Assembly (NCBI RefSeq): GCF_000759025.1
Contig: NZ_JPOS01000020.1
Location: 218,883-250,882, forward strand
From: Phaeodactylibacter xiamenensis
GTDB lineage: Bacteria > Bacteroidota > Bacteroidia > Chitinophagales > Saprospiraceae
Direction: 5' to 3'
DNA: 32,000 nt
The position numbers and the translations under genes are program-made. The stretch's first letter is position 1. Each line of letters starts with the position of its first letter. The notes beneath the pieces are model-generated. The model ran no database searches, was not told the DNA's origin, and saw only the letters and a program-made list of their open reading frames with translations. This document shows positions 1 to 18,940 of this stretch, one piece after another.

Positions 1-1
1 G

Positions 2-958
2 GTACACCGTGGAGTTGTGAACCTGCAGGGCACGTAGCTTGGGTACCTTCCCTTCTGAAAGCAGCTTTATAGAATCTTCTTCCACATCAGCACTCAGCAG
101 TACACGGAAGCGCGCGATGTCCTCCTTATAAATCTCCATAATGGATTCGTTGAGCCAGTTGGTGCCGAAACTGACTCTGGGACTGCGCTGCCGCATATGT
201 TCATTTGTGGTACGTACATCCAGGGCCTGCTGGAACAACGCAATACGGCTCTCATGCCACAAGCGCTTGCCGAAGACAATAGGCGAATTGGCAGCCACGG
301 CAATAACGGGGGCAGCCAGAACTTGCGAGATATTGTACAACGGTGCAAAGTTGTTGGGGCTTACCTGCAGGTGGACCTGGAAGCTGGTATTGCAAGCCTC
401 CAGCAGTGGAGAATTATGCCGCAGCAGCAGTTCGTCAATCCCCGAAAGCCGAAGCTCATAGGCACTGCCCTGCAGCTGAGAATTGATGGCCTCCATGAGT
501 GCATAGTAACGCTTTTTGGGCGTCAGGTTGTGCATCTCCAGGTCGTATTTGCGCAGCGTTGGCAGTATACCGGTCAGGATGAGCCGGGCTTTCATGTCCT
601 TTAGCCGGTCACTAATCTTGTCTAGTTTGCCGGCATTCTCTTTTTCCAGCTCGCTTAGGCAGTGCCCGGTGAACTCCCGCGGGTCGAGGTTGGTCTCCAG
701 GTTGAACTTCGCCAGCTCCGTCTCCACCCAGTCGTAGTCCTTCATGTGGTCGAGCGCCTCCATGGCAATTGTAGCCGGCTTGTAGGTTTTTCGGTGCACC
801 AGGCACATCTCCTGTTCCGCCCCGATACGGACGATGTCCTTTTCAAACCAGTCGTTGTCCAACATGTACTCCAATGCCTGTACATCCCGCAGCAGCTTCT
901 TAACAAACTGTTGCATAGATACTTCATCCTGTACCAGAGAGACTCTTTGCTCGCCCAT
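2..958 (-). CDS. Carboxylate-amine ligase / glutamate-cysteine ligase family 2 (GCS2)-like protein. N-terminal 319 codons only; the 3' end runs off the window.
   Basis: This edge ORF is absent from the supplied track. I read + strand triplets 2-4 through 956-958 and found no TTA, CTA or TCA, so the minus frame is open from ATG (958-956) to the window edge. The translation MGEQRVSLVQDEVSMQQFVKKLL..RIGAEQEMCLV..NTSFQVHLQV..VAANSPIVFGKRLWHESRIALFQQ has the GxExE / HxH / SP..G....SR spacing I associate with YbdK-type GCS2 enzymes. The track ORFs in 94-1030 are shorter alternative-frame shadows. Confidence 0.5.
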   Translation of the reverse strand, partial: MGEQRVSLVQDEVSMQQFVKKLLRDVQALEYMLDNDWFEKDIVRIGAEQEMCLVHRKTYKPATIAMEALDHMKDYDWVETELAKFNLETNLDPREFTGHCLSELEKENAGKLDKISDRLKDMKARLILTGILPTLRKYDLEMHNLTPKKRYYALMEAINSQLQGSAYELRLSGIDELLLRHNSPLLEACNTSFQVHLQVSPNNFAPLYNISQVLAAPVIAVAANSPIVFGKRLWHESRIALFQQALDVRTTNEHMRQRSPRVSFGTNWLNESIMEIYKEDIARFRVLLSADVEEDSIKLLSEGKVPKLRALQVHNSTVY

Positions 959-1111
959 AAGTGTGTCGTTTTGTTCAACTGCTTAAATATAGTTGATAAT
1001 TGGAAAGGCAAGCATAAATTTAGTTTTTAATTTTGCTTGCCCGGGCGGCGTGAAAAAAGAGCAATCTTTAAGATGTCCCACGCACACAATCTTTCCGGGC
1101 ATTCGGTTGTT

Positions 1112-1648
1112 ATGAACATTATGAAGCAATTGGTTTACATCTTCCTCACAGTGCTCATCTTCGCTGCCTGCCGCCGTGATAACCGGCAGCCGTTGTTTGA
1201 TTTGGCTTACCCGAATTTCCGCTTCACCATTCAAGCCGGTGAAAGCCCTGTGCTTCCGGGGGCTTACGCCATTCGCGGGGTGGCTACCAATATTAACTTC
1301 TTCCTCAACCAGAACAATACGGATACCTCGGCGATTTCTGAGGTGAGTGCCTACTCGGCAACCCTTCGGTGCCTGGATGGGTTTGATTATGTCTTTATGG
1401 AGGGGGTCTCGGTACGCATATGTGAAGATGGGACAGAAAACTGTACCCCTGCCGATGAAGTCTTCTACATCGATCAGCTGCAACGCTACCCTGAAGATGA
1501 CCGCATTGACCTGCTGCCCGGGCTGCGGAATGCCAAGCGGGATTTGTTCCGGGAGAGTGTCCGGCTGGAAATTGTTGTCTTCTTTGCCTATTCTCCACCT
1601 GCCAACTATGCTTCGCAACTGGATATGGTCTTCAGGGCCTACCGGTAA
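1112..1648 (+). CDS. Hypothetical lipoprotein
   Basis: Track ORF 1037-1648. An internal ATG at 1112 (or 1121) gives MNIMKQLVYIFLTVLIFAAC, a signal peptide with a lipobox-like FAAC. I recognise no family. The antisense ORF 983-1618 lacks any such features. Confidence 0.55.
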   Translation: MNIMKQLVYIFLTVLIFAACRRDNRQPLFDLAYPNFRFTIQAGESPVLPGAYAIRGVATNINFFLNQNNTDTSAISEVSAYSATLRCLDGFDYVFMEGVSVRICEDGTENCTPADEVFYIDQLQRYPEDDRIDLLPGLRNAKRDLFRESVRLEIVVFFAYSPPANYASQLDMVFRAYR

Positions 1649-4162
1649 TTAGAAGTAAAAAGCCACACCGCCCCTCAACCCAAAACGCCTTGCCTGTGGG
1701 TTATCAAGGTAGTTTAGTCGCCATACGGCTTCAATTTGGAAGACCTTCAGGATATTCTCAATGCCCACACTGGCCTCCATGTAGGGATGTTGGCTCGGTG
1801 CCCGGAAGCCCGGATAGGTGTTGACATCGGTAGGCTCGAAGAGGTTGAGCCGGTTGACATCGCGGTTGGCATTGGAGAGGCGGCCCATCACCGCTTTGAA
1901 GGTCGCGTAGGAACGGAATTTAAGCTTTCGCAAAAGCGGGATGTGGTTCAGGAAGAACCCATCGAAGTGGTGTTCCAGCATCAGGCTGGCGTAGGTATCG
2001 CTGGCAAACTCATACCGCGTCATCATATTGAAAATGCTGCGCCCCACCAGATAGCCCTCATTGCCGGGATGGACTTCCATCAACAGGAAGGGAACGTTGC
2101 CAAAAACTTTGCCGGCCCGTATGCGGTAGGACATCCAGCCTACAGGGTTCATATAAAAGTAGTGCCGGTAACTCAGGTTGAGCTTATGGTAGGTGTACTG
2201 CCCGCCGAGCAGGTCATCGACGCCCAGGGTATACTGGAATTCAATAATGGGGTGCTTGGATCCAAAGCTGTTGCGGCTGAAGTCTCCGTCCACAATCATC
2301 TCATCCTTGACGTACCGGGTTTTGAAAATGATCTCCGTTGTGCGGATGGTCGTATCAATATCCGTCAATCGGCCCGGGTCCGATAAGTAAGCAAAGTTGA
2401 AGCCGCGCCCGTCGGGAAAAATACCGCCGTAGGGGTCCATTTCCCGATGCAGGAAGGTGACGCGGTTGGACAAGCCGTTTTTCCAAAAGCGCTCGTAGTA
2501 GACCTTGCCCTCTCTTACACGCATCAACTTCATAAGCAGGTCACGCCTGAAAAGCCCGGAAAACAAATCGCCCTGCACAAATTCCTCACTATTCTCGCTG
2601 TTGAGGCTGATGTCGTTTACGTAAGCCAGGCCGGCAGTGGTCCTGGGCTTGCGGCTCATAATCCAATCCACATTGCCCCCGTATTTGAATTGCTGGTCCT
2701 GAAGCCCGTAGGCCAGGAAGCCACCAAGCCGTAGGTTTTCACTGAATAGCCGTGTAGTCCGCCCCCCAATACTGAAGCGGTCGCCTTCCACCGGATTGAA
2801 GCTGTAGAGGGAGGAATAGGGCCCGATTTCCACTTTGCCAATTTGCAGGTAGCCGACGAAGACAGTCTCCAGGACTTCCACATAGGTCTTGAACAAAGGC
2901 ATATTCTGAATGCTGTCCACCATGGTGTAGACCTGCTGTTCCGTTTTGGAAAGCGGCTCGTGGCGGGCAGCCTGCCAGAAGGAGTCATTCTCTACCTTGA
3001 CTTCATCGAGCAGGTAAAATTCTTCCTTTTCAATGTAATCCTGTTTGGTGCCGACCTGGTTGAGGCGCATGTTTTTGAAGGTCTCGGTCCGCCGGGCGAT
3101 CATCCCGGGCGCATTTTCGGCGGGGGAAAAGTCGACCACCATCTTTTTCTTGACCGGCACCCAGTTGGGTACCTCCCCTTTTGGCTCGTATTCTTCGTGT
3201 ATGATGATGCGGCTGACCAGGTTGATGTTGGCATCGGGCGTCATCCGCATATTGGCACGCTGTACCGCAAAGGTGGAATCTGCCACCCAAAAGTCGCCGT
3301 AAAAAGTTGGCTCCTGCTTGCGCTTGGGCTTAAACTTTAACTGATGGCTCCAGTACCCATTGACCATGGCGCTGTCGATGATGTAGTACTCGTAGTAGTT
3401 GAGCCCCGATTTGGAAAAAGGGCTGGCGAAGGGTTTGTCCAGCACGTAAACCCAGTCATCGTAAATACTGTACTCCAGGTGGATGCGCTTGATGTATTCG
3501 ATGACAGTCTGATTGTTAGTGCCGGTAGCGCGTTGTGCTTTGATAATGCGTTTGGGCTGGCCCGCATCCTTCACATACAGCACATCGGAGAGGACCTCAT
3601 TGATGTAAATCGGCAGGAAGGGCTTCTCATCCGAAGTGCTGTCGATATTCTCGAAGATGAAGTCGAAAGGCTTGAGGAGCTTCTTGTTGCGCAGCTCTGC
3701 GTCTATGTTTTCCAGGTCCAGCTCAATTTTAGCGTAGCTTTCGTAGGCGTAGGACTCCCGGGCGCTCATGCGGGTTTCCGGTTTGTTGTCAATAATGCCC
3801 TTCACAATGGCATTGGCCGGATTTTCCCCGGCAATGACCACCACCTCGTTGAGGGTCAGGCTGGAGCCGCCAAGGTAGAAGTTGATCTCCTGCTCTGCGA
3901 GGTCCGGCAGCACGGGCTTACGCACCACATTATAACCGATGGCGCTCGCGCTCAGGCTGTCTCCGGGCTCCTTGACCGTAAGTTCATAGTAACCATCCAC
4001 ATCCGTAGAGGTGCCTTTGGTGGTGCCTTCGAAAAATACGTTGCTAAAAGGTACGCCCTCCTTGGTATCCTGATCGATCACCCGGCCACGCAGCGTCACC
4101 TGCCCCAGGAGTGGAGCGGCTGTAAGCAGTAGCAGTAGGATAAATATTGGACTTTTCATCAT
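1649..4162 (-). CDS. Carboxypeptidase-regulatory-like domain / DUF5686-type large outer-membrane-associated protein
   Basis: 837-aa ORF. It has an N-terminal signal peptide (MMKSPIFILLLLLTAAPLLGQ) followed by VTLRGRVIDQDTKEGVPFSNVFFEGTTKGTSTDVDGYYELTV, a typical CarboxypepD_reg beta-sandwich. The long C-terminal region ends in an aromatic residue (..GVAFYF), as in Bacteroidota DUF5686 proteins. Its stop codon abuts the stop of the convergent gene at 1648/1649. Confidence 0.75.
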   Translation of the reverse strand: MMKSPIFILLLLLTAAPLLGQVTLRGRVIDQDTKEGVPFSNVFFEGTTKGTSTDVDGYYELTVKEPGDSLSASAIGYNVVRKPVLPDLAEQEINFYLGGSSLTLNEVVVIAGENPANAIVKGIIDNKPETRMSARESYAYESYAKIELDLENIDAELRNKKLLKPFDFIFENIDSTSDEKPFLPIYINEVLSDVLYVKDAGQPKRIIKAQRATGTNNQTVIEYIKRIHLEYSIYDDWVYVLDKPFASPFSKSGLNYYEYYIIDSAMVNGYWSHQLKFKPKRKQEPTFYGDFWVADSTFAVQRANMRMTPDANINLVSRIIIHEEYEPKGEVPNWVPVKKKMVVDFSPAENAPGMIARRTETFKNMRLNQVGTKQDYIEKEEFYLLDEVKVENDSFWQAARHEPLSKTEQQVYTMVDSIQNMPLFKTYVEVLETVFVGYLQIGKVEIGPYSSLYSFNPVEGDRFSIGGRTTRLFSENLRLGGFLAYGLQDQQFKYGGNVDWIMSRKPRTTAGLAYVNDISLNSENSEEFVQGDLFSGLFRRDLLMKLMRVREGKVYYERFWKNGLSNRVTFLHREMDPYGGIFPDGRGFNFAYLSDPGRLTDIDTTIRTTEIIFKTRYVKDEMIVDGDFSRNSFGSKHPIIEFQYTLGVDDLLGGQYTYHKLNLSYRHYFYMNPVGWMSYRIRAGKVFGNVPFLLMEVHPGNEGYLVGRSIFNMMTRYEFASDTYASLMLEHHFDGFFLNHIPLLRKLKFRSYATFKAVMGRLSNANRDVNRLNLFEPTDVNTYPGFRAPSQHPYMEASVGIENILKVFQIEAVWRLNYLDNPQARRFGLRGGVAFYF

Positions 4163-4214
4163 CTCTTGGACGTAAGCTATATCTTTGTGGCCACTAATTC
4201 AACTCTTCGCGATA

Positions 4215-4820
4215 ATGTTATTGCCCTTTTTCGACAAAAATCAGATTGAAGCAGGCTGCGATGAAGCCGGGCGCGGCTGTCTTGCCGGGCCGGTCTTTGC
4301 AGCTGCTGTGATTTTACCAACAGATTTTGAGCACCCGTTGCTCAATGATTCCAAACAATTGTCAGAAAAACAGCGGTACGAAGCGCGTAAAATCGTCGAA
4401 GCCGAAGCCATTGCATGGGCTGTAGCGCAGGTGGCCCCAAAAGAAATCGATGAGATCAATATTCTCAACGCCTCCTTCCTGGCTATGCACCGGGCCATCG
4501 CTCAACTCGACCCCATACCGGAATGCCTGCTCATCGACGGCAACCGCTTCAAGCCTTATCAGGACCTGCCCCACCACTGCATCATCAAGGGGGATGGAAA
4601 GTACCTGTCGATCGCTGCCGCCTCCGTACTGGCCAAAACCTACCGCGACGACTATATGATGCAGATTCACGAAATGCACCCCCACTACGACTGGCACAAA
4701 AACAAAGGCTACCCCACCAAAGCACATCGGGCGGCTATACAGGCGCACGGGGCTACGCCACACCACCGGCAGTCGTTCCGCCTGCTGCCTAATGCGGAGC
4801 AGGGGCGGCTTTGGGCGTAG
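4215..4820 (+). CDS. rnhB: Ribonuclease HII
   Basis: [55 protein letters not shown] matches RNase HII catalytic motifs. The track ORF begins at a TTG (4185). ATG 4215 ([10 protein letters not shown]) is the more likely start. Confidence 0.9.
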
Positions 4821-4951
4821 GGTTTTGGTTGATTTCAGGGTAGCATGAGGTAACGTAGTATTTTGTCTTAGGCTGGAGCCAAAGGTTTAGGGCATTGCAT
4901 TGCAAAGCTTGAGGCACTATGCTCCGCTTCAATGCACCCAACTCCAGGCGC

Positions 4952-5060
4952 AACTTTCCCCCTCTGGAGGGGGGCAGGGGGAGGAACTTTCCCCCTCTGG
5001 CCGCTTTCGCTCAGTTGCTACAGCGCCGGGACAAGAGTGGGTAAGGGGGAGGAACTTTCC
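4952..5060. repeat. Short imperfect direct repeats, (GGGGGAGG)AACTTTCC(CCCTCTGG), three copies, with a small CCCCCT/AGGGGG hairpin
   Basis: AACTTTCCCCCTCTGG occurs at 4952-4967 and 4985-5000. GGGGGAGGAACTTTCC occurs at 4977-4992 and 5045-5060. The site is the intergenic region at the rnhB-proximal edge of the island. Confidence 0.6.
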
Positions 5061-5184
5061 TGAAAAAGGTTGACTTCCATAATTTACTCCAGAGCAGACT
5101 ATCCAAATAATCATCAGCCTCCCAATTTATAAATTAACAATGCTGATTCGTATATTTACACTCCAAGCACCAATCCACCATGAT

Positions 5185-7038
5185 ATGCCCCACTTAAGAT
5201 TACTGTTTTTTATCCTTTTACTGGCTAGCCTTTCCGATGGCCTACGCGCTCAGGCTACAGGCAACAACTACGCCCACTTCTTCTATGTCACCGACTTCCA
5301 GCCCGGTTGGGAAGACCTGCCGGAAACCGGGCGTGAAGCCCGCAATATTGGTCAGGTACTGGAAAGTGACTACAACTTCACCGTGCAGTACCACCGGGAG
5401 GTGGAAAAAGCAGACATCCTCCAGAAGATCGCCGAGATCAACAGCCGCAAATACGGCAAAAACGATCAGGTACTCTTCTTTTTCTCCATGCACGGCCACT
5501 TCGACAAATCCGCCGACCGCGGCTACCTCGTACCGGCAGATGGCAAAATACCCCGCCTTGACGCCTACGGGCAAACCTGGCTCAGCTACGACGACCTCGG
5601 CAGCTACATCACGAAAAATCCTGCCGAGCATGTCCTCCTCGCTCTTGATGCCTGCTACTCCGGTGCTTTTGGCGACCGCTACAAGGGCGCACCCGATGCC
5701 CTGCCCTGGGAAGGTGCAGGCGATTGTCAGCAGAAAGCCCAGTTAGCCCTGCAGCACGACAGCCGGCTGTACTTTTCCTCCGGCAGCCGGGAACAGCGCA
5801 CCCCAGCCAATTCCCTCTTCGCCAAAAAATGGCTGGAAGCCCTGCGCAACGGCGCCCGCACCGGTTTGGTCACCTCCCGCGACCTGCGCTACTACCTGGG
5901 CGGTATTTCCTACCCCACGCCCGAGGGCGGCTCTTTTACCAGCCGGCACGAGGCGGGCGGGGATTTTGTGTTTCTGCACCGCTCAGCTTGCCAGGGTAGC
6001 AACAGCAGTGATGGTACAGATGCCGCAGAGGAGCAGCTATGGGCACAGGCGCAGCGCCTGAAGACCAAGGAAGCCTACGCCTTTTACCTGCAAGCCTACC
6101 CCAATGGCCGCTACCGGGCGCAGGCGGAGGCGAAGATTAAAGTCTTTGAGCAGGGCGAGACTATAACGCCCTCCTCTACCACCCGCCGGCGCGACCTTCC
6201 GGATATGCTCTTCGTGGAAGGGGGGACTTTTCAGATGGGGAGCTCGGATAGTGATGCCGGCAGCGATGAAAAGCCGCATACGGTCACGGTGGATGACTTT
6301 TACCTGCATCGTTTTGAGGTGACGAATTCGGAGTTTGCCGAGTTTCTCAATGCCAAAGGGCGGCACGAATACAATGGAGCAGAATGGTACGATTTGGATG
6401 ACGAAGATGCCCGAATAGAGCAACGCAGCGGCACTTATACTACGAAAGGAAGCTATGGTAAACACCCGGTAACAGAGGTGACCTGGTACGGCGCAGTAGC
6501 TTACTGCAACTGGAAAAGTGAAGCATTGAACCTTCAGCCCGTGTACCGGATCAGCGGTACGAACGTAAGCGCGGACTGGAACGCGGATGGCTACCGCCTG
6601 CCTACGGAGGCGGAGTGGGAGTTTGCGGCGCGTAGCCGGGGAAAAGATTACAAGTATGCATGGGGTAATGGGAAACCCAATGGAAATATAGCAGATGAAA
6701 GTGCCAAAAAAGAGAATTCCGGATGGACTATTTGGGAAGGATACGATGACGGATATCCAGGTACGGCTCCTGTAGGAATGTTCGAGCAAGGTACACTAGG
6801 CTTTTCAGATTTATCCGGCAATGTCTGGGAGTGGTGTTGGGACTGGTACGATAGTGATTATTATAAAAACAGTCCCAGTCGTAACCCCCGTGGCCCCAGT
6901 ACGGGCTCTGGCCGGGTTCTACGGGGCGGCTCCTGGGGCCTCTTACCAGCCTTTCTGCGTTGTGCTTTTCGTTACTACTCCGCCCCCGGCCTTAGTAGCA
7001 ACTTCATAGGGTTTCGCCTCAGCAGGGCAGGTCGTTAG
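5185..7038 (+). CDS. DGR target protein 1: secreted caspase-like (peptidase C14) domain fused to an FGE-sulfatase / C-type-lectin-fold variable domain
   Basis: Signal peptide MPHLRLLFFILLLASLSDGLRAQA from ATG 5185. The caspase-type His/Cys dyad context is present (VLFFFSMHGH.. and LLALDACYSGAF). The C-terminal FGE-sulfatase motifs are FVEGGTFQMGS, HPVTEVTWYGAVAYCNW, YRLPTEAEWEFAARS, GNVWEWCWDWY, RGGSW..RCAFR..IGFRL. The last ~41 codons are VR1. Confidence 0.85.
   Translation: MPHLRLLFFILLLASLSDGLRAQATGNNYAHFFYVTDFQPGWEDLPETGREARNIGQVLESDYNFTVQYHREVEKADILQKIAEINSRKYGKNDQVLFFFSMHGHFDKSADRGYLVPADGKIPRLDAYGQTWLSYDDLGSYITKNPAEHVLLALDACYSGAFGDRYKGAPDALPWEGAGDCQQKAQLALQHDSRLYFSSGSREQRTPANSLFAKKWLEALRNGARTGLVTSRDLRYYLGGISYPTPEGGSFTSRHEAGGDFVFLHRSACQGSNSSDGTDAAEEQLWAQAQRLKTKEAYAFYLQAYPNGRYRAQAEAKIKVFEQGETITPSSTTRRRDLPDMLFVEGGTFQMGSSDSDAGSDEKPHTVTVDDFYLHRFEVTNSEFAEFLNAKGRHEYNGAEWYDLDDEDARIEQRSGTYTTKGSYGKHPVTEVTWYGAVAYCNWKSEALNLQPVYRISGTNVSADWNADGYRLPTEAEWEFAARSRGKDYKYAWGNGKPNGNIADESAKKENSGWTIWEGYDDGYPGTAPVGMFEQGTLGFSDLSGNVWEWCWDWYDSDYYKNSPSRNPRGPSTGSGRVLRGGSWGLLPAFLRCAFRYYSAPGLSSNFIGFRLSRAGR
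6902..7025 (+). repeat. DGR variable repeat 1 (VR1)
   Basis: Gapless alignment to TR 9051-9174. All 26 mismatches I counted lie at TR adenines, and every TR C/G/T position is identical. VR1 encodes GSGRVLRGGSWGLLPAFLRCAFRYYSAPGLSSNFIGFRLSR. Confidence 0.9.
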
Positions 7039-7050
7039 GTTTTAGTCTTT

Positions 7051-7296
7051 TTATTTTTTTACAGATTCCCTTAGGAGGGGCATGGCTCGTACGAGCCATG
7101 CCCCTCTTTCTATATATGGCCTATATGCACCAGCATATATAAGAGTGAAATGCATAAGGATATATTGAAAATTGGCACGGTATTTTCAGGAGTATAGGCG
7201 TATATATAGTCAGCATATATGGAATTACGAATCTTTACACTGCCGTTTGATGAGGTTTCGGAAGGTTTTCCGGATGAGATTATCACGCAGTTTTGC
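7051..7296 (+). repeat. Copy 1 of a ~245-bp duplicated post-VR segment (hairpin, AT-rich leader, 5' end of the HRDC gene)
   Basis: It aligns by eye at roughly 85-90% identity to 12991-13235. Shared pieces are TTAYTTTTTTACA, the GC hairpin, TATATATGGCCTATATGCAYCAGCATATATAA, CAGGAGTATAGGC, and ATGGAATTACGAATCTTYACACTG..GATGAGGTTTCGGAAGG..GAGATTATCACGCAG. Confidence 0.8.
7075..7106 (+). terminator. Perfect 14-bp GC-rich hairpin (loop GTAC), 50 nt downstream of VR1. Either a terminator of target 1 or a DGR target-site hairpin.
   Basis: GAGGGGCATGGCTC (7075-7088), GTAC, GAGCCATGCCCCTC (7093-7106). A homologous hairpin occurs downstream of VR2 at 13014-13043. Confidence 0.6.
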
Positions 7297-7710
7297 CAGA
7301 ATAAGAAGGTGTACAGCATGAAAACGCACTTTTTTGAAGAGGAAGGCCGGCACTTTTGGTCCGTTGCCGTGCAGTATGAAGTGGTGCTAAAGGGAGAAGA
7401 TAAAATACGGGCATTGGATGATGCGCAACAGCTGCTTTATGAGCGGCTCCGAGAATGGCGTAAGCAATACGCTGGAGATTTAGGTATCCCCGTATACCTG
7501 ATCGCTACAAATGCGCAGTTTTTGCAAATGATAAAGATGAAATGCAGAACGCTGGAGAGCTTAAAGCAAATAAAGGGTTTTGGCAGAAAACGGCTAACAA
7601 AATACGGAGCGCATATTACCAATATCATTAAAGACTTCTATGAGCGGGGCAAGCAGGTGCAATCCGAACAGGAAGCTGCTGGCAAAATAGATGATTTACC
7701 TTTTTCTTAA
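7219..7710 (+). CDS. HRDC-domain DGR accessory protein
   Basis: The C-terminal half, LYERLREWRKQYAGDLGIPVYLIATNAQFLQMIKMKCRTLESLKQIKGFGRKRLTKYGAHITNII, follows the RecQ/RNase D HRDC pattern (LR.wR...A...g.P.y.I.....L..m....P....eL..I.G.G..k...yG). It lies immediately upstream of avd and the RT. Confidence 0.8.
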   Translation: MELRIFTLPFDEVSEGFPDEIITQFCQNKKVYSMKTHFFEEEGRHFWSVAVQYEVVLKGEDKIRALDDAQQLLYERLREWRKQYAGDLGIPVYLIATNAQFLQMIKMKCRTLESLKQIKGFGRKRLTKYGAHITNIIKDFYERGKQVQSEQEAAGKIDDLPFS

Positions 7711-7720
7711 ACTCACACTC

Positions 7721-8065
7721 ATGGCACAACCTCAGGATTATCCGTTATTCAACCATTGGTATCAGACGACTGATTGGCTTTTGGAGCGCTGTGAGCGAAT
7801 GCCCAAACATACTCGCTTTACGGTGAGTGGGCGAATGGCCAATCTGGCGCTCGATACGGTAGAATTATTGCTCGAAGCTATTTATTCCCGCGAGCGTAAA
7901 GAGTTGATTAAAAAGATCAACATGAAGCTGGAAAAACTGCGGTTTTTCAACCGCCTCTGTAAGGACCGCTCGTATTTGAGTGTGACCCAATATGAGTTTT
8001 TGGCACGAGCCATCAATGAGTCCGGCAAAATGTGCGGCGCATGGGCAAAAAGTAGTCCGTCATGA
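7721..8065 (+). CDS. avd: Accessory variability determinant (Avd)-like four-helix-bundle protein
   Basis: 114 aa from ATG 7721: MAQPQDYPLFNHWYQTTDWLLERCERMPKHTRFTVSGRMANLALDTVELLLEAIYSRERKELIKKINMKLEKLRFFNRLCKDRSYLSVTQYEFLARAINESGKMCGAWAKS. Its size, predicted helicity, the P(K)xxRF motif, the basic patches, and translational coupling to the RT (ATGA overlap) all fit DGR Avd proteins. Confidence 0.75.
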   Translation: MAQPQDYPLFNHWYQTTDWLLERCERMPKHTRFTVSGRMANLALDTVELLLEAIYSRERKELIKKINMKLEKLRFFNRLCKDRSYLSVTQYEFLARAINESGKMCGAWAKSSPS

Positions 8066-9051
8066 AAAGATATGGGCAATTATTCGATGACTTTACCTGC
8101 TTTTCCAACTTGTTTTCCGCTTATAAGAAAGCCCGGAAGGGAGCTGTTGGAAAACCTTCAACTCAGCAATTTTCCTTTCAATTGGAGCCTGCTTTGTTAG
8201 AGCTGCAACAGGAATTAATCAACGGCAGGTATAAGCCAAGTGCTTATCGTTATTTCAAAATATTCGACCCTAAGGAGCGGATCATTTCCGTTGCTTCCTT
8301 CAAAGACAGAGTAGTGCATCATGCCTTAATCAATCTACTGGAACCGATCTACGAGCGTTGTTTCATACACGACAGTTATGCTACCCGTAAAGGGAAAGGC
8401 ACGCACTTAGCCATAAACCGGGCACAAGCCTTTATGAGGGGGCATCAATGGTTTTTGAAGACAGATATTGACAAATACTTTGATAGCATCAACCAACAAG
8501 TATTGATCGCACTACTCAATCGTAAAATTAAAGATCAGCGATTGTTGAGCGTAGCCAAGGGCATTATACAAAATGGCGGATCAAATGGGGTAGGCCTTCC
8601 TATTGGCAACCTAACCAGCCAATTCTTTGCGAATGTTTACCTCAACCCCTTCGACCACTTTGTAAAACAGCAGCTCAGCGCAAAATACGTCCGGTATATG
8701 GATGATTTTGTCTTGTTTTCAAAGAATAAAGAGACATTGAAAAGCTACAAAACAGCTATTGAAAGCTACCTTTCAGCGCAATTAAAACTGCACCTGAAAG
8801 AGAAAGCGACCTTCATCAACCAAGCGGCTAACGGGTTAACATTTCTTGGTCGAAGGATTTTTCCCAAGACAATAAGGATCGCCCGACCTAACGGCAAACG
8901 CATGTTACGCCGGATGAAAAGCAAAGAGCAAGTCTACAGAAAGGGAGGTTTAGATCAAGCTGCTTTTTTGCAAAGTATGAACAGCTACTGGGCACAGTTG
9001 CAACCTTTTTACGGATTAAGGCAGGAAATTTTACAAGGGCAGTCAGCATGA
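8062..9051 (+). CDS. DGR-type reverse transcriptase
   Basis: RT motifs are present: FKIFDPKERIISVASFKDRVVHHAL, the DGR-characteristic LPIGNLTSQFFANVYL ((I/L)GxxxSQ where group II intron RTs have QG..SP), and the catalytic RYMDDFVLF (YMDD). At 329 aa it is compact, with no maturase or endonuclease extension. Confidence 0.92.
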   Translation: MKRYGQLFDDFTCFSNLFSAYKKARKGAVGKPSTQQFSFQLEPALLELQQELINGRYKPSAYRYFKIFDPKERIISVASFKDRVVHHALINLLEPIYERCFIHDSYATRKGKGTHLAINRAQAFMRGHQWFLKTDIDKYFDSINQQVLIALLNRKIKDQRLLSVAKGIIQNGGSNGVGLPIGNLTSQFFANVYLNPFDHFVKQQLSAKYVRYMDDFVLFSKNKETLKSYKTAIESYLSAQLKLHLKEKATFINQAANGLTFLGRRIFPKTIRIARPNGKRMLRRMKSKEQVYRKGGLDQAAFLQSMNSYWAQLQPFYGLRQEILQGQSA

Positions 9052-9174
9052 GGGCTCTAACCGGGTTCAACGGGGCGGCTCCTGGAACAACAAACCAGCC
9101 AAACTGCGTTGTGCTAATCGTAACAACAACACCCCCGGCAATAGTAACAACAACATAGGGTTTCGCCTCAGCAA
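9051..9174 (+). repeat. DGR template repeat (TR)
   Basis: 124 nt containing 39 adenines. In the target frame it reads GSNRVQRGGSWNNKPAKLRCANRNNNTPGNSNNNIGFRLSN, with 9 AAC, 3 AAT and 2 AAA codons. It is identical to VR1 and VR2 at all non-A positions, apart from one T/G difference with VR2. No plausible ORF covers it. Confidence 0.9.
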
Positions 9175-9273
9175 TACAGTTAAAGTCTGAACAGTCAGCT
9201 CTACGGACATGGCTGCCGTACACGATCTGTCCCGCTGACTGTCCTGCACCCTTGAGGGTCAAATACAACTAGA

Positions 9274-9311
9274 AATGCATTGCTTGGTACGGAGACGGAA
9301 GAGCAGTGCAT
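9274..9311. terminator. Hairpin between the convergent DGR cassette and the minus-strand operon (probable bidirectional terminator)
   Basis: AATGCATTGC (9274-9283) pairs with GCAGTGCATT (9302-9311), 10 bp including one G-U. It is followed by CTTTCTC on the + strand. It lies 7 nt from the stop of the minus-strand gene ending at 9318. Confidence 0.5.
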
Positions 9312-9317
9312 TCTTTC

Positions 9318-10019
9318 TCACCCCCCCTTCCGAAAAAACGAAAACACAATCTGCCCCACGTAAGCCCCCAGCACACTCTCCACCAGCGCCAGCCAGGTAT
9401 TCATCTGTGCGAAGGAGAAGGCAGACTTGGCCTTCAGCTCAATGAAGAGGAGTAGGAGCAGCCCGTAGATGGGCAGCAAAAAATAAGAGAAGGTGACGAG
9501 CGGGCCCGAAATATACCGGGGCGGCTCCGGCCCTTTGTGGTGCTGCCGCAGGTAGTCGGCCACCATCACAGAGATGTAGGCGGCCAGAGCAGGGGCCAGC
9601 AAAGCCACGGTACCCTGGAATTGGTCATTGCTAAAGCCACCCGTGCTCCAGTGGTAGGACAGCCGCAGGATGACGGCTACCTTGATGAGGCACAAGAGGT
9701 AAAACAGGCGTTTCTTGAAAGTAGCCTCCGTGAGCAGGCGGCGCCGCTTTTTGCCGGGCGTGGGCTCATCCGGCAGGCGGCTCACCCAGTCGGTAAGGCT
9801 GTGGGTGATTTGGGCGTGGGCGCGGGAGTATTCCTCGTAAGAAATCAGCCCGGCGTTCCACTTCTCGTGGTGGTTCTGCGCACGACTGCCAAGTACCGTG
9901 AGGGCGTTGGCGATGTCGCTCAGCCCGGAGTACTCGGCGTATTCGAGGGCAGCGGCATTGGCGGCTTCAAGCTTGCCCTGCGTGATGAGCTGCCGGATGG
10001 AGGATTTGGTGTGGTCCAT
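9318..10019 (-). CDS. Hypothetical membrane protein: ~85-aa helical N-terminal domain plus about 4 predicted TM helices
   Basis: 233 aa. The N-terminal region is MDHTKSSIRQLITQGKLEAANAAALEYAEYS..LGSRAQNHHEKWNAGLISYEEYSRAHAQITHSLTDWVSRL. A basic linker (GKKRRRLL) follows, then hydrophobic segments LFYLLCLIKVAVILRL, GTVALLAPALAAYISVMVADYL, LVTFSYFLLPIYGLLLLLFIEL and WLALVESVLGAYVGQIVFSFF. It is 3 nt downstream of the preceding gene, so the two likely form an operon. Confidence 0.6.
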   Translation of the reverse strand: MDHTKSSIRQLITQGKLEAANAAALEYAEYSGLSDIANALTVLGSRAQNHHEKWNAGLISYEEYSRAHAQITHSLTDWVSRLPDEPTPGKKRRRLLTEATFKKRLFYLLCLIKVAVILRLSYHWSTGGFSNDQFQGTVALLAPALAAYISVMVADYLRQHHKGPEPPRYISGPLVTFSYFLLPIYGLLLLLFIELKAKSAFSFAQMNTWLALVESVLGAYVGQIVFSFFRKGG

Positions 10020-10022
10020 AAG

Positions 10023-11018
10023 CTAGGGGCGTTCCAGATAGCGCTTCAGGTCTTGCTGAAAGCGGTTGACGTAAGGGATGAGGAAGTCGTCTTCAAAGTC
10101 GGGCTCCATATCCATATAGCCGCTGCTGCGGGGCTTGTATACGCCGGAGCCGAATTTGCCCGTCAGGCTACCCGTGAGGAGGTAGCCGTCATCAGTGGGG
10201 GTGTAGTGGAAGGTGAACTCCAGGCGCTCCCGGCGCATATCGTTGCAGTCGCCCCACCACAGCTCCACGAAATCGCACCAGAGGGACTGCTCTTCGTCGG
10301 TTAACACTTCGCGGCAGAGGTCGGAGACGTGGAATTTGAGGACATATTCGTTATTGAAGTCGGTTTGTTCCACTTCGGGCTTTCGCTCTTCGCAGCCTTC
10401 CCGGGGCTGCTCATAGCGCTGCCGGGCGTAGCGCAGTACCGCATCGAAGACTTCTTGGCGGCTACGCTTTTTGTCAATAGCGACTTCGGATGTCCCCACC
10501 GCTTGCTCCACCCTGGGCAGCTCTACCGGGATATTGAGCGTCTGTGCTTTGCAGGCATTGATGCGTTTTTTTTGCTGTATGGCATTGTCAGCCTCCCATA
10601 TCCAGTAGTAGAAACAGGGGTTGTAACCACTGCCGGAAGCCGCCGGCAGGTACACCTGTATATTGCCCTGCGCGGGCGGAATTTCCATAAAGCGGACGAA
10701 GGTATAGTAGAGGGTTTCGTCCAGCGACTCGCCGTCTTCCTGCTCTGCCAGGGTTTGCTGCAGTTCGTTCCAAAGGGCAGCGCCTTCGTCGGGGTTGGTG
10801 GTGCGCAGGCTGAGCCACAGCTCCAGTTCCATGCCGTTTTTCGCCAGCTTGGCTTCATCTACTTTCAGCACTTGCCCGTAGCCTTTGGCATCGAGCCAGC
10901 GCTGGTAGAGGCGGGCTTTTTTGTTGAAAAAGTCGGCATCGTCGCCCAGGAATACCTGCGCGTGAGGCTCCAGAGGTAGGCACAAAAAAAGCAGCGATAA
11001 GAGGTATGGTATCTTCAT
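10023..11018 (-). CDS. Hypothetical secreted protein
   Basis: The track ORF runs 10023-11039 and starts at a TTG. ATG 11018 gives MKIPYLLSLLFLCLPLEPHAQ, a signal peptide. The protein is cysteine- and tryptophan-containing and acidic. I recognise no family. It is transcribed divergently from target 2. Confidence 0.6.
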   Translation of the reverse strand: MKIPYLLSLLFLCLPLEPHAQVFLGDDADFFNKKARLYQRWLDAKGYGQVLKVDEAKLAKNGMELELWLSLRTTNPDEGAALWNELQQTLAEQEDGESLDETLYYTFVRFMEIPPAQGNIQVYLPAASGSGYNPCFYYWIWEADNAIQQKKRINACKAQTLNIPVELPRVEQAVGTSEVAIDKKRSRQEVFDAVLRYARQRYEQPREGCEERKPEVEQTDFNNEYVLKFHVSDLCREVLTDEEQSLWCDFVELWWGDCNDMRRERLEFTFHYTPTDDGYLLTGSLTGKFGSGVYKPRSSGYMDMEPDFEDDFLIPYVNRFQQDLKRYLERP

Positions 11019-11138
11019 AACCATGGGGTTTGCTGCCAAATTACTGAATTTGTTATACTTGTTGCGGCTTCTCCCATCTTCAATTCGGCTCAGCCTGTAA
11101 TTTTTGTACTTTTACACAGTGTTCAAACCCTCTACGCT

Positions 11139-12891
11139 ATGACTTTACCCCGTTTTCTACCTTTAATGGTGCTGCTGTTTTTCAGCTACAGCCTTTCCGC
11201 CCAGTCCGCCCTGCGCGATGGCAAAGACTACGCCATTTTCTTCTACTGCACCTCCTTTGACCAAGGCTGGACATCCCTGCCGGAAACCGAAGAGGAGGTC
11301 AAAGCCATCGGTAACCTTTTGCAGTCGGACTACGGTTTTCAGCTCCACTACGTCAAGAACCCCAGCAAAGCAGACATCAAGGATGAAATCACGAAGTGGA
11401 ACGCCCGCGTACGCCCCAATGATCAGGTGCTCTACTTCTTCTCCACCCACGGCTACTACGACGCCGCTGCCGACGAGGGTTTCCTCGTTCCGCACAATGG
11501 AAAGCTGCGGGATACCTACGGCGATACCTGGCTGAGCTACGCCGAACTGGGCCGCCGGGTGACCAAAAGCAACAGCAAGCATGTGCTCCTGGCGCTCGAC
11601 GCCTGCTACTCCGGTGCCTTTGGCGACCGATACAAAGGCCAACCCGGTGGTACCCCCTGGGAAGCCGATGCAGACTGCGCCGATCAGGTAGAAAACGCCC
11701 TGTCGTACCCCACCCGCCGCTACTTTACATCCGGCAGCAAAAACCAACGAACCCCCGCCCGTTCCCTCTTCGCCCGCCGCTGGCTGACCGCCCTGCGACA
11801 GGGGCAGGAAAAAGGAGTCGTGCGTATCCGGGACTTACGCTACCACCTGGGTAGTATTCCCAATCCCAAGCCAGAGGATGGCTCCTTTACCGGGCATGAG
11901 GATGGTGGATTTGTTTTTGTGCACCGCTCGGCTTGTCAGGGTAGCGGCAGTGGTGGTACGGATGCCGCAGAGGAGCAGCTCTGGGCACAGGCGCAGCGAC
12001 TGAAGACGAAGGAAGCTTACGCTTTTTATCGGCAAGTGTACCCCAATGGCCGCTACCGGGCTCAGGCGGAGGCGAAGATCAAGGCCTTTGAGCGGGGCAA
12101 GACTATAACGCCCTCCTCTACCACCCGCCGGCGCGACCTGCCGGATATGATCTTCGTGGAAGGGGGCAGTTTTCAGATGGGGAGTAGCGATAGCGATGCG
12201 CATGATGATGAAATGCCCCATACGGTCACGGTGGATGACTTTTATATGCACCGCTTTGAGGTGACCTTTGAGGAATACGATCAGTTTTGCGAAGCAACCA
12301 GTCGGAAGAAGCCGGATGATGAAGGCTGGGGGCGTGGAAAGCGCCCGGTGATCCATGTGAGCTGGTACGATGCCGTAGCCTACTGCAACTGGAAGAGCAA
12401 ACAAGAAGGGCTACAGGAGGTATACCGAATTAGCGGTACAAGCGTGAGCGCGGACTGGAACGCCGATGGCTACCGCCTGCCTAACAGAGGCAGAGTGGGA
12501 ATTTGCGGCGCGCAGCCGTGGTGGCAATGATAAATGGGCGGGGACTTCTTCGGAGTCAGCTTTGTCCAATTATGCAAACTACTATGAAAGTGGCTCAAAG
12601 GGTGGCTACATGCAAACGGCACCGGTGGGTTCATTCCGAGCTAATAAGCTGGGCCTGCATGACATGAGCGGCAATGTCTGGGAGTGGTGCTGGGACTGGT
12701 ACGATAGCGATTACTATAAAAATAGCCCCAGTCGTAATCCCCGTGGCCCCAGTACGGGCTCTTACCGGGTTCAGCGGGGCGGCTCCTGGCGCGGCGAGCC
12801 AGCCCGACTGCGTTGTGCGTTTCGTCTCGGCGGCACCCCCGGCTATAGTAGCCTCTTCATAGGGTTTCGCCTCAGCAGGACCGCGGAATAG
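11139..12891 (+). pseudogene. DGR target 2: caspase-like :: FGE/CLec paralog, interrupted by a +1-nt frameshift near 12483-12484
   Basis: Track ORFs 11139-12530 and 12466-12891 are two frames of a single gene. Target 1 has CCTACGGAGGCGGAGTGGGAG (LPTEAEWEF). Here the sequence is CCTAACAGAGGCAGAGTGGGAA, and deleting one A restores LPTEAEWEFAARSRG. The signal peptide (MTLPRFLPLMVLLFFSYSLSAQS), the dyad context (FFSTHGYY, LLALDACYSGAF) and the FGE motifs are all retained. Confidence 0.8.
12755..12878 (+). repeat. DGR variable repeat 2 (VR2)
   Basis: Gapless alignment to the TR. Of the 27 mismatches I counted, 26 lie at TR adenines. The exception is TR T9115 versus G12819. VR2 encodes GSYRVQRGGSWRGEPARLRCAFRLGGTPGYSSLFIGFRLSR. 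Confidence 0.88.
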
Positions 12892-13013
12892 GCAGTGCTC
12901 CTGCCTTTCAGAAGATTCTGCGTCCCAGGGGGCGGGGCGTTAGATTTTATCTTTTCTCCGTCCGCTGAAGCCCTTTAGGGCGCAGGCGGGTTACTTTTTT
13001 ACAAAACAATCAG

Positions 13014-13043
13014 GAGGGCATGGCTCGAAAGGGTCATGCCCTC
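13014..13043 (+). terminator. GC-rich hairpin homologous to 7075-7106 (13-bp stem with two G-T/G-U pairs, GAAA loop)
   Basis: GAGGGCATGGCTC (13014-13026), GAAA, GGGTCATGCCCTC (13031-13043). Confidence 0.55.
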
Positions 13044-13155
13044 TTCCTATATATGGCCTATATGCATCAGCATATATAAAGGTGAAATGTATACGGATAT
13101 ATTGGAAATTGGCCCCTTCGTTTCAGGAGTATAGGCATATATATAGCCAGTATAT

Positions 13156-13235
13156 ATGGAATTACGAATCTTCACACTGTCCTTTGATGAGGTTTCGGAA
13201 GGAGTTCCGATGAGATTATCACGCAGTAGTTTTGC
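13156..13235 (+). pseudogene. Remnant of the 5' end of an HRDC accessory gene
   Basis: ATGGAATTACGAATCTTCACACTGTCCTTTGATGAGGTTTCGGAAGGAGTTCCGATGAGATTATCACGCAG matches 7219-7290. It has a 1-nt deletion (GGAGTTCC-GATGAG versus GGTTTTCCGGATGAG). Similarity ends after ~80 nt, and no avd, RT or TR follows. Confidence 0.7.
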
Positions 13236-13430
13236 TTTGCTGCTGAGAAGCGCTGTAAGATTGGGAATGGGAGGAGGCGTCAGGGGGGCATCTCCTGAAT
13301 AGGGTCGATTCCTAGCCCCCACCAGACGCTTGCGCCACAGCTGGCTGCAGCGTAGGGGCACGTGGGAGACGCGTTGTTCGTGGCGCTGGGAACGGGGAGT
13401 AAAGTATGGTCCTTGGCTTTTGGGTAAAAT

Positions 13431-13471
13431 GTGGAGACAGCAGGCACTTTTAAAGTTCCTGCTGTCTCCAC
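13431..13471 (-). terminator. Rho-independent-type terminator of mnmG
   Basis: A perfect 14-bp stem: GTGGAGACAGCAGG (13431-13444) pairs with CCTGCTGTCTCCAC (13458-13471). It directly abuts the mnmG stop codon (13472-13474). A short T-run (ATTTTACCC) follows on the minus strand. Confidence 0.7.
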
Positions 13472-18816: not shown

Positions 18817-18940
18817 GGGCAGTTGCAGTTTGTCTGTACAGTAGCAGTTCAGAAGCAAATGTACTAATTCTGCCCGTGAAAGCGGGGGCAATTTGAGCTT
18901 TGTCGGGGCTGGACTTTCGCATCAGGCCCCTCAGGCAGGG

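Follow-up and report, generated by a model that had tools for sequence, protein, structure and literature searches.

The stretch of DNA analysed here, called the window throughout, comprises 32,000 nucleotides of Phaeodactylibacter xiamenensis (contig NZ_JPOS01000020.1, positions 218,883 to 250,882) and contains a complete diversity-generating retroelement (DGR), made up of an HRDC-domain gene, the accessory gene Avd, a reverse transcriptase (RT), a template repeat (TR) and two variable repeats (VR1 and VR2). VR1 forms the 3' end of T1, the gene with which this study is chiefly concerned, whose predicted product carries a putative export signal and joins a caspase-fold protease domain to a C-type-lectin-fold (CLec) domain of the formylglycine-generating enzyme (FGE) type. 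Comparison with a second assembly of the locus indicates that the retroelement acts on T1 in nature, and T1-like genes of related bacteria tend to lie near two conserved genes, ORF338 and EAD11-4TM. T1 and the DGR comprise the following features.

5185..7038, + strand: T1, DGR target gene, 617 aa (open reading frame (ORF); Pfam C14 and FGE-sulfatase; AlphaFold2)
5185..5250, + strand: signal-peptide-like N-terminus, aa 1-22 MPHLRLLFFILLLASLSDGLRA, then Q (hydropathy heuristic; family-wide)
5251..5991, + strand: caspase-fold domain (Peptidase_C14, metacaspase/paracaspase-like), aa 23-269 (Pfam, model, Foldseek)
5491..5493, + strand: codon of the putative catalytic His103, S-M-H-G (invariance, profile alignment, model)
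5653..5655, + strand: codon of the putative catalytic Cys157, D-A-C-Y-S-G (invariance, model)
5992..6189, + strand: linker, aa 270-335, a low-complexity hinge and three helices (aa 277-322; AlphaFold2 secondary structure)
6190..7035, + strand: FGE-sulfatase/C-type-lectin-fold domain, aa 336-617, predicted non-catalytic (Pfam, PDB profile matches)
6903..7024, + strand: VR1, 3' end of T1, aa 574-614 of 617 (TR/VR comparison)
7075..7106, strand not assigned: perfect 32-nt palindrome GAGGGGCATGGCTCGT/ACGAGCCATGCCCCTC, ~50 nt downstream of VR1
7219..7710, + strand: HRDC-domain DGR accessory gene (Pfam HRDC 53.7 bits)
7691..8065, + strand: Avd accessory gene (Pfam bAvd 56.3 bits; NCBIfam DivGenRetAVD 98.7 bits, cut-off 80)
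8062..9051, + strand: DGR reverse transcriptase (Pfam RVT_1 81.9 bits; PADLOC RT 201 bits)
9052..9173, + strand: TR, 122 nt, beginning directly after the RT stop codon
12756..12877, + strand: VR2, in the second target T2 (TR/VR comparison)

Domain architecture of T1

Although a start at 5140 is possible, 5185 is likelier, as it agrees both with the 617-aa NCBI protein P0001 and with where most homologues begin. Four parts follow one another from there: the signal-peptide-like N-terminus, the Peptidase_C14 domain, a helical linker, and the FGE-sulfatase/CLec domain, the last ~40 residues of which are the variable region (VR). AlphaFold2, run on the whole protein with 108 homologues, gave a model with a mean pLDDT of 90, in which disorder is limited to aa 272-277 and 325-333, on either side of the three-helix linker. 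An earlier note on this DNA, made from the sequence alone, had placed a signal peptide, a caspase-like domain, a linker and a CLec domain with its VR in 5185-7038. All four elements are present, the N-terminus being signal-peptide-like by hydropathy; the Peptidase_C14 and FGE-sulfatase profiles both match T1 (C14 above threshold), and each of the motifs that had been read can be found in the translations: SMHGH (T1), STHGY (T2), the linker AEEQLWAQAQRLKTKEAYAFY.Q.YPNGRYRAQAEAKIK and ALDACYSGAF. The further statement that both targets share one architecture holds as far as the order of domains goes; T2, however, is frameshifted.

The protease domain

Evidence for a caspase fold comes from several directions. 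In Pfam, T1 matches Peptidase_C14 (PF00656) with 39.5 bits (cut-off 21.4) over aa 36-222. Because a Foldseek search with the whole protein was swamped by the FGE domain, the caspase part (aa 23-269) was modelled on its own, giving a pLDDT of 90.3 and a pTM of 0.90. The top 50 PDB matches of this model are all MALT1 paracaspase, caspases or metacaspases, with 4i1p, 3v4o and 7qp1 in the lead (best E 5e-10; probability 1.00 and TMq 0.52-0.67 throughout). The family profile also matches caspase large subunits (E 3e-5), and the His of S-x-H-G is aligned there with the SHG His of caspases.

Residues H103, D155, A156, C157 and S159 are unchanged across all 108 full-length homologues, down to 38% identity, and in the model H103 and C157 each stand directly after a beta-strand, as in caspases. 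The earlier reading that the contexts of a His/Cys dyad are retained is thus upheld, the dyad being invariant and, by profile and model, in its canonical fold positions; neither a missing C14 or CHAT match nor a missing dyad, either of which was to count against that reading, was encountered. Because the dyad is invariant across the family, the C14 domain is very likely to be catalytically competent.

The D-x-C motif of T1 is one that we take to be shared with MALT1 (D462-M-C464) and metacaspases, in which the Asp presumably lines an Arg/Lys-specific S1 pocket. By this analogy with MALT1 and TbMCA2, the motif D-x-C-x-S-G suggests cleavage after Arg or Lys. Basic residues also recur in the low-confidence loop after the catalytic Cys, with Lys or Arg at position 167 in 92 of the 108 sequences and Arg or Lys at 165 in 79 of them, and these positions could be a candidate self-processing site. 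Two further cysteines, C181 and C269 (5725-5727 and 5989-5991), covary perfectly among the same homologues (both Cys in 93, neither in 15, mixed in 0), a pattern that points to a disulfide within the protease domain.

The C-terminal binding domain

The C-terminal domain matches FGE-sulfatase (PF03781) with 222.9 bits over aa 338-612, and it resembles both FGEs and the DGR target TvpA (2y3c) by profile (TvpA E 2e-53) and by fold (TvpA E 1.4e-19, TMt 0.72). When T1 is aligned with human FGE (GGSWGLLPAF---LRCAFR in T1, GGSYMCHRSYCYRYRCAAR in the human protein), the copper-binding catalytic pair of the latter (Cys336/Cys341) proves to be missing, and its positions coincide with variable positions 585-590 of T1. 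The T1 stretch that holds these positions corresponds to the segment of the FGE active-site groove, and it coincides with the VR of TvpA as well. By homology to FGE and TvpA, the VR of T1 would map to an exposed ligand groove rather than to the buried core, the placement that would have told against a variable binding surface. On these alignments, the C-terminal domain of T1 is a binding module and not an enzyme.

Diversification of T1 in nature

VR1 and VR2 are each ~80% identical to TR, and their mismatches are concentrated at TR adenines, where 25 of 26 fall in the comparison of VR1 with TR and 25 of 27 in that of VR2 with TR. Adenine makes up 36/120 TR bases, and by our arithmetic the chance probability of such a bias is of the order of 1e-12. 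In T1 the variable codons number 15 (aa 576, 579, 585-587, 590, 595, 597-600, 603 and 605-607); TR has AAC or AAT at 11 of them, and the scaffold residues between them (G, R, W, C, P) are encoded without adenines in TR. We calculate that ~7e16 protein variants of T1 are possible.

P0001 has the same start and length as T1 and differs from it at 12 residues, all at TR-adenine codons. The contig that encodes it (L072; GCA_024742295.1) is a second public assembly of the locus and aligns without gaps to positions 1-15038 of the window. Between the two, 22/15,038 nt differ, all of them within VR1 (6910-7004) and all at TR-adenine positions, while TR, VR2 and the rest of the 15,016 shared bases are identical. 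Because every difference falls in VR1 at a TR adenine, we infer from this comparison of assemblies that the DGR is active on T1 in nature.

The palindrome downstream of VR1 has a relative downstream of VR2, a hairpin at 13014-13043 with a 9-bp stem, and each of the two hairpins is followed by an inverted repeat, TATATATG/CATATATA. These elements may be terminators or DGR cis elements; the sigma-70 promoter and terminator scan is uninformative for Bacteroidota.

Export and location

The N-terminus of T1, MPHLRLLFFILLLASLSDGLRA followed by QATG, combines a basic n-region with a hydrophobic core of 11 residues (mean Kyte-Doolittle value 3.0 over 10 residues in a hydropathy heuristic) and an A-Q junction. 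A-Q junctions fit the 'Q-rule' of Bacteroidetes signal peptidase I substrates. A similar hydrophobic N-terminus, mostly ending in A-Q, is present in 111 of 121 sequences (T1 and the best 120 listed homologues), in agreement with the cleavable-looking signal peptide that the earlier note had described. Because this signal-peptide-like N-terminus is family-wide, T1 can be expected to reach the cell envelope by Sec-dependent export. The covariation of C181 and C269, of the kind that a disulfide formed under oxidising conditions would leave, counts in favour of export too. Some relatives of T1 also carry TSP_3 (TSP type 3) or CarboxypepD_reg modules, which are typical of envelope proteins.

Where in the envelope T1 might reside is narrowed by what it lacks: it has no lipobox Cys and, by Pfam, no C-terminal domain of the type IX secretion system (T9SS). 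T1 is thus probably not a T9SS cargo, unlike the CHU_C protein of the same window, and since T1 is without either signal the periplasm is most likely its default destination. The earlier description of T1 as secreted should be narrowed accordingly. The CHU_C protein itself (24589-31770, + strand) is a 2393-aa adhesin with Ig, PKD and HYR repeats and a CHU_C type IX secretion signal, and from it the organism can be seen to have a T9SS.

A conserved pair of neighbouring genes

Downstream of the DGR, the window continues as follows.

9318..10019, - strand: EAD11-4TM, 233 aa, EAD11 and four predicted transmembrane (TM) helices (Pfam EAD11, PF19964, 68.6 bits, cut-off 26)
10023..11039, - strand: ORF338, with a signal peptide, conserved cysteines and no known family (an alternative start near 11018 gives 331 aa, as called in L072)
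11139..12891, + strand: T2, paralogous C14-linker-CLec target, broken by a 1-nt insertion (ORFs, Pfam)
13039..13209, + strand: copy of repeat D4, 171 nt, 88% identical to 7102-7272 (T1-downstream spacer and first 54 nt of the HRDC gene)

The best-scoring 120 homologous protein clusters of T1 are nearly all of the C14 plus FGE type and come from Saprospiraceae, Lewinellaceae and Chitinophagales, among them Haliscomenobacter hydrossis, Neolewinella persica and Lewinella; the H. hydrossis protein P0087 is a full-length homologue (39% identity, 99% coverage). A scan of species-representative genomes with a profile of the C14 domain yielded 71 loci, 24 of them with the full 20 kb. Among the named genomes, the best match is a Phaeodactylibacter metagenome-assembled genome (MAG), with 94% identity over the C14 domain. 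As judged by tblastn and all-against-all clustering of ORFs, the only conserved families in these neighbourhoods are C14-X, ORF338 and EAD11-4TM, plus occasional DGR genes. C14-X genes are present in 70 of 72 sequences (the 71 loci and the window), and they often form tandem arrays, which hold as many as six genes.

A homologue of ORF338 occurs in 37/71 loci and one of EAD11-4TM in 36/71, and both are present in 18 of the 24 full 20-kb loci. Wherever they form a pair, the two genes are adjacent and co-oriented (35/35); in the window, the ORF338 stop lies 3 nt ahead of the EAD11-4TM start. A C14 gene lies directly downstream, on the same strand, of 17 of the 36 EAD11-4TM genes.

In EAD11-4TM, the EAD11 domain is N-terminal and four hydrophobic helices follow; the distribution of basic residues would place EAD11 in the cytoplasm by the positive-inside rule. 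This subtype is rare, with 37 cluster representatives among 1.84 billion proteins in HMMER, nearly all of the ~230-aa EAD11-4TM architecture, and the same exhaustive scan revealed no link to a known effector. One protein stands apart, P0149, in which 1276 aa accommodate seven or more EAD11 domains in tandem (Pfam 221 bits over 7 stretches), which is odd for a presumed adaptor. In the literature, the string 'EAD11' was found only in unrelated uses. Farther along the window, a 497-aa ORF with no Pfam family (17398-18891, - strand) lies beside a VanY-type carboxypeptidase gene.

The DGR as an occasional add-on

RT is present in only 5/71 loci, and the GC content of the DGR cassette (0.43 over window positions 7001-9000) is lower than the ~0.55 of its flanks. 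Locus L003 is syntenic with the window, with flanks 92-93% identical in nucleotides, and is without the DGR cassette, having a DUF559 gene and repeats in its stead (11750-13250). Locus L001 has a different cassette in the same position (11829-13399), with an HRDC gene, an RT 40% identical to that of the window, no Avd, and a TR/VR pair of its own. The DGR is, then, an occasional low-GC add-on to C14-CLec loci. At L011, L029 and L060, four to six C14(-CLec) paralogues stand in tandem with no DGR at all, and in the majority of genomes paralogy, not hypermutation, seems to be the source of diversity. The repeats around the DUF559 endonuclease-like gene of L003 (12017-13188) are direct repeats of 50-80 nt; they belong to several families, and their cores are G/C-rich and hairpin-like.

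The domains of T1 have also been exchanged among proteins. P0045 combines a signal peptide and an M48 metalloprotease (HEIGHH) with a CLec domain that shares 69% identity with the one in T1, and P0050 has two C14 domains ahead of its CLec domain. Conversely, in P0107 and in the T2 orthologue of L003 (15998-17431, with two CarboxypepD_reg-like domains and no CLec domain), C14 and linker are joined to CarboxypepD_reg domains in place of CLec. Such repeated, independent fusions of proteases with binding modules argue that proteolysis and binding act together.

The second target and its repeats

T2 is split by an extra A near 12484 (CCTAACAGAG, as against CCT-ACGGAG in T1) into ORFs 11139-12530 and 12466-12891 (463 aa and 141 aa). 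As the split is also called in L072, and VR2 is unchanged between L072 and the window, T2 looks like a recently inactivated target, a decaying copy. That the frameshift is a random assembly error is unlikely, given the same split in L072; a shared systematic error is possible if the assemblies come from related datasets.

Repeat D1 (253 nt; 6005-6257 and 11947-12199), which takes in the linker and the beginning of the CLec domain, is 90% identical between T1 and T2, whereas the protease domains of the two are clearly less alike (70-82% in repeat families). The contrast points to gene conversion between these paralogues or to a recent swap of domains. Repeat D4, for its part, suggests a duplication of the target together with the cassette edge, or a second cassette since deleted.

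Discussion

Relation to known systems

The combination of domains seen in T1 has precedents. The Metacaspase/FGE-sulfatase architecture has been recorded in 33 proteins, including one of Haliscomenobacter hydrossis (Asplund-Samuelsson et al., 2012, PMC3501461). Proteins of this kind have the same two domains as T1; in the surveys that describe them (PMC3501461; 2016, PMC4933709), the FGE part is read as sulfatase-modifying, and no tie is made to DGRs, export or ORF338/EAD11-4TM. Orthocaspase-CLec variable proteins of DGRs are known from cyanobacteria (Vallota-Eastman et al., 2020, PMC7517822). Like T1, these have an N-terminal caspase-type peptidase, a DGR-diversified C-terminal CLec domain and filamentous or multicellular hosts, but they belong to another phylum and are mostly predicted to be cytosolic, whereas the T1 family is predicted to be exported and has an invariant dyad and a different conserved neighbourhood.

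More broadly, multicellular bacteria are known to have CHAT, TIR and peptidase domains within DGR targets or beside them, and EAD adaptors as well (PMC7159879, PMC8195603, PMC10907252), which bears out what the earlier note had said of FGE-type DGR domains fused to effectors in such organisms. DGR antigen sensors share with T1 the hypervariable CLec/FGS sensor (Dore et al., 2024, PMC10907252; Kaur et al., 2020/2021), and their loci resemble that of T1 in having peptidase effectors (trypsin, caspase/CHAT) and EAD adaptors and in being enriched in multicellular or filamentous taxa. They use STAND NTPase or MoxR-vWA ternary cores, however, which were not found at the T1 locus. In T1, by contrast, sensor and protease are united in one small, apparently exported protein, and no partner bears an adaptor except a 4TM membrane protein. 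Caspase-EACC1 modules are likewise joined to sensors, including DGR-type ones, and their protease cuts a neighbouring small protein, leading to membrane damage (Evans et al., 2025 preprint, PMC12642450). These systems include cytoplasmic Avs-type sensors activated by phage proteins, in contrast to the predicted export of T1.

Each half of T1 also has known relatives. TvpA of Treponema denticola (2y3c) has an FGE/CLec fold and a C-terminal VR, as T1 does, but neither TvpA nor Mtd has an enzymatic domain. PorK/GldK and GldJ are a further instance of a non-catalytic FGE fold in the Bacteroidota envelope; unlike T1, these periplasmic lipoproteins are structural components of the T9SS ring, neither hypervariable nor fused to a protease, and although T1 matches NCBIfam GldK with 133 bits (and PDB 9mzu also), this is far under the equivalog cut-off of 350. 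On the protease side, MALT1 and type I metacaspases have in common with T1 the caspase-hemoglobinase fold, the His-Cys dyad and the D-x-C before the catalytic Cys, but sequence identity to them is 10-16%, T1 has no death or Ig domains, and its Arg/Lys specificity is predicted by analogy.

The earlier claim of novelty therefore survives in part. No experimental work on any C14-CLec protein was found in the literature, nor any paper coupling DGRs with Saprospiraceae proteases; the architecture itself, however, is already present in PMC3501461 and PMC7517822, and related modules in PMC12642450. Export of the family, its clustering with ORF338/EAD11-4TM and the DGR as an occasional add-on were likewise not found in the literature. 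What is new here is a predicted exported, NTPase-free variant with a new conserved pair of partners, which by comparison of assemblies has been seen diversifying in nature.

A possible periplasmic sensing protease

The ideas on function put forward in the earlier note, diversified substrate targeting and ligand-triggered activation, are both plausible. The reading that we prefer, though tentatively and with somewhat less than even confidence, is that T1 belongs to a periplasmic ligand-sensing protease system whose proteolytic output would pass through ORF338 or EAD11-4TM to the cytoplasmic EAD11 adaptor, the whole serving in envelope surveillance or conflict. The CLec tip would bind a variable, probably foreign, periplasmic ligand, and such binding would activate the protease, perhaps by induced proximity as in caspases and MALT1, or steer it to its substrate. 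The protease would then cleave a periplasmic substrate, for which ORF338 or the periplasmic loops of EAD11-4TM are the best candidates, and cleavage would relay a signal through the inner membrane to the EAD11 adaptor and to any effector that EAD11 recruits. Several C14-CLec paralogues, or one that is diversified by a DGR, could in this manner feed many specificities into one constant transducer. EADs have been proposed as adaptors in the conflict systems of multicellular bacteria, and FGS/CLec domains as sensors of invaders (PMC7159879, PMC8195603, PMC10907252), and we count these proposals as conceptual precedent for a sensing role.

A number of observations weigh against a sensing protease system of this kind. 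The PADLOC caspase match of T1 is weak (20.8 bits). T1 does not qualify as an EACC1-type caspase either, as it scores 48 bits with NCBIfam caspase_w_EACC1 (cut-off 140) and no EACC1-like small ORF lies near it, the intergenic small ORFs being without Pfam matches. No NTPase (STAND, MoxR-vWA, GTPase), TIR domain, nuclease or other recognised effector lies near the T1 gene, and none is among the families conserved across the related loci. The 'EAD principle' of homotypic pairing leads one to expect another protein that bears this EAD (Kaur et al., 2020/2021; PMC7159879, PMC8195603), yet no second EAD11 protein is conserved within the window or the 71 related loci. For ORF338 no credible match was obtained with the single sequence against Pfam, NCBIfam and PADLOC, with ten members against Pfam, or with a 10-sequence profile against PDB, and its part as a substrate or partner of T1 is a guess from synteny. 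Saprospiraceae are, moreover, known protein degraders, so that a trophic role is conceivable.

Alternative readings

The main rival of the sensing model is targeted degradation, which we regard as somewhat unlikely. Here the CLec domain would tether the protease to a variable envelope target, such as a phage receptor-binding or injected protein, a competitor's toxin or a foreign surface protein, and the C14 domain would destroy it; there would be no signalling, and ORF338 and EAD11-4TM would be unrelated or loosely connected. The direct fusion of binding and protease domains through a short helical linker fits this well, as do the unions of CLec with unrelated proteases (M48, two C14 domains), which are expected if delivery of a protease is what was selected, and the want of a recognised downstream effector nearby. 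It leaves unexplained the strong, arrangement-independent linkage to ORF338/EAD11-4TM in most full-context loci, and caspase-fold enzymes are usually switches that act by limited proteolysis rather than bulk degraders.

It is also conceivable, though quite improbable, that the CLec domain is the sole functional end of T1, a variable receptor or adhesin like TvpA, and that the C14 domain is a scaffold or takes part in self-processing during maturation. DGR targets of the classic kind only bind, TvpA (2y3c) is close to T1 in structure, the basic residues at 165/167 after the catalytic Cys could be the site of such processing, and the dyad has been lost in many prokaryotic caspase homologues (PMC3501461, PMC6426788). 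The invariance of dyad and motif in 108 homologues down to 38% identity argues, on the contrary, for maintained catalysis, and the repeated pairing of CLec with other proteases is hard to square with an idle protease domain.

We consider it likewise quite improbable that T1 is a trophic or predatory exoenzyme, which would leave the cell via vesicles or an unrecognised route, attach to algae, prey bacteria or detrital glycoproteins by their variable surfaces and digest them as food, with the DGR tracking changes in food surfaces. Its export signal is in keeping with this, the closest named genome is a Phaeodactylibacter MAG, and Bacteroidetes metacaspases may help to degrade phytoplankton-derived polymers (PMC4933709). 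But T1 has neither a T9SS C-terminal domain nor a lipoprotein signal, whereas the T9SS cargo of the window has CHU_C, and a conserved membrane-adaptor neighbour (EAD11) is not expected beside a digestive enzyme. If T1 were only a trophic enzyme, it would be a modest extension of the known diversity of DGR targets.

Finally, a true FGE that matures sulfatases, as the high FGE-sulfatase score in Pfam and the source annotations ('SUMF1/EgtB/PvdO family nonheme iron enzyme') would have it, can be dismissed with near certainty, for the equivalents of Cys336/Cys341 are absent, the segment in question is the hypervariable VR, and the equivalent domain of TvpA (2y3c) belongs to a binding protein.

Implications for filamentous Bacteroidota

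Returning to a periplasmic sensing protease, the T1 family offers several points of entry. To our knowledge, most cellular DGR targets are without a known ligand or output. T1, as a DGR target with a protease domain and an invariant dyad, offers a built-in readout, and related genes in the isolate genomes of Haliscomenobacter hydrossis, Neolewinella persica and Flavilitoribacter nigricans give experimental access. Close loci that have this DGR, another DGR or no DGR make up a natural comparison set, and the conserved ORF338/EAD11-4TM pair supplies specific candidate substrates and transducers. If the hypervariable tip directs or switches the protease, T1 would be a case of natural, retroelement-reprogrammed protease targeting, which is of interest for engineering.

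It is tempting to speculate further, though we hold this to be unlikely, that the three-gene module of predicted exported C14-CLec paralogues, secreted ORF338 and EAD11-4TM is an unrecognised, immune-like surveillance system in the periplasm of filamentous Bacteroidota, with an output in cell fate. The lectin tip, reprogrammed by a DGR in some strains and multiplied by paralogy in others, would capture foreign molecules of the envelope; capture would turn on the metacaspase-like protease, which would cut ORF338 or the membrane protein and so engage the death-domain-like EAD11 adaptor in a cell-fate response. If true, the module would be the equivalent, outside the cytoplasm and without an NTPase, of caspase/inflammasome-type sensing, its receptor being adaptive-like, and the immune logic of 'caspase plus variable receptor' would extend to the bacterial periplasm.

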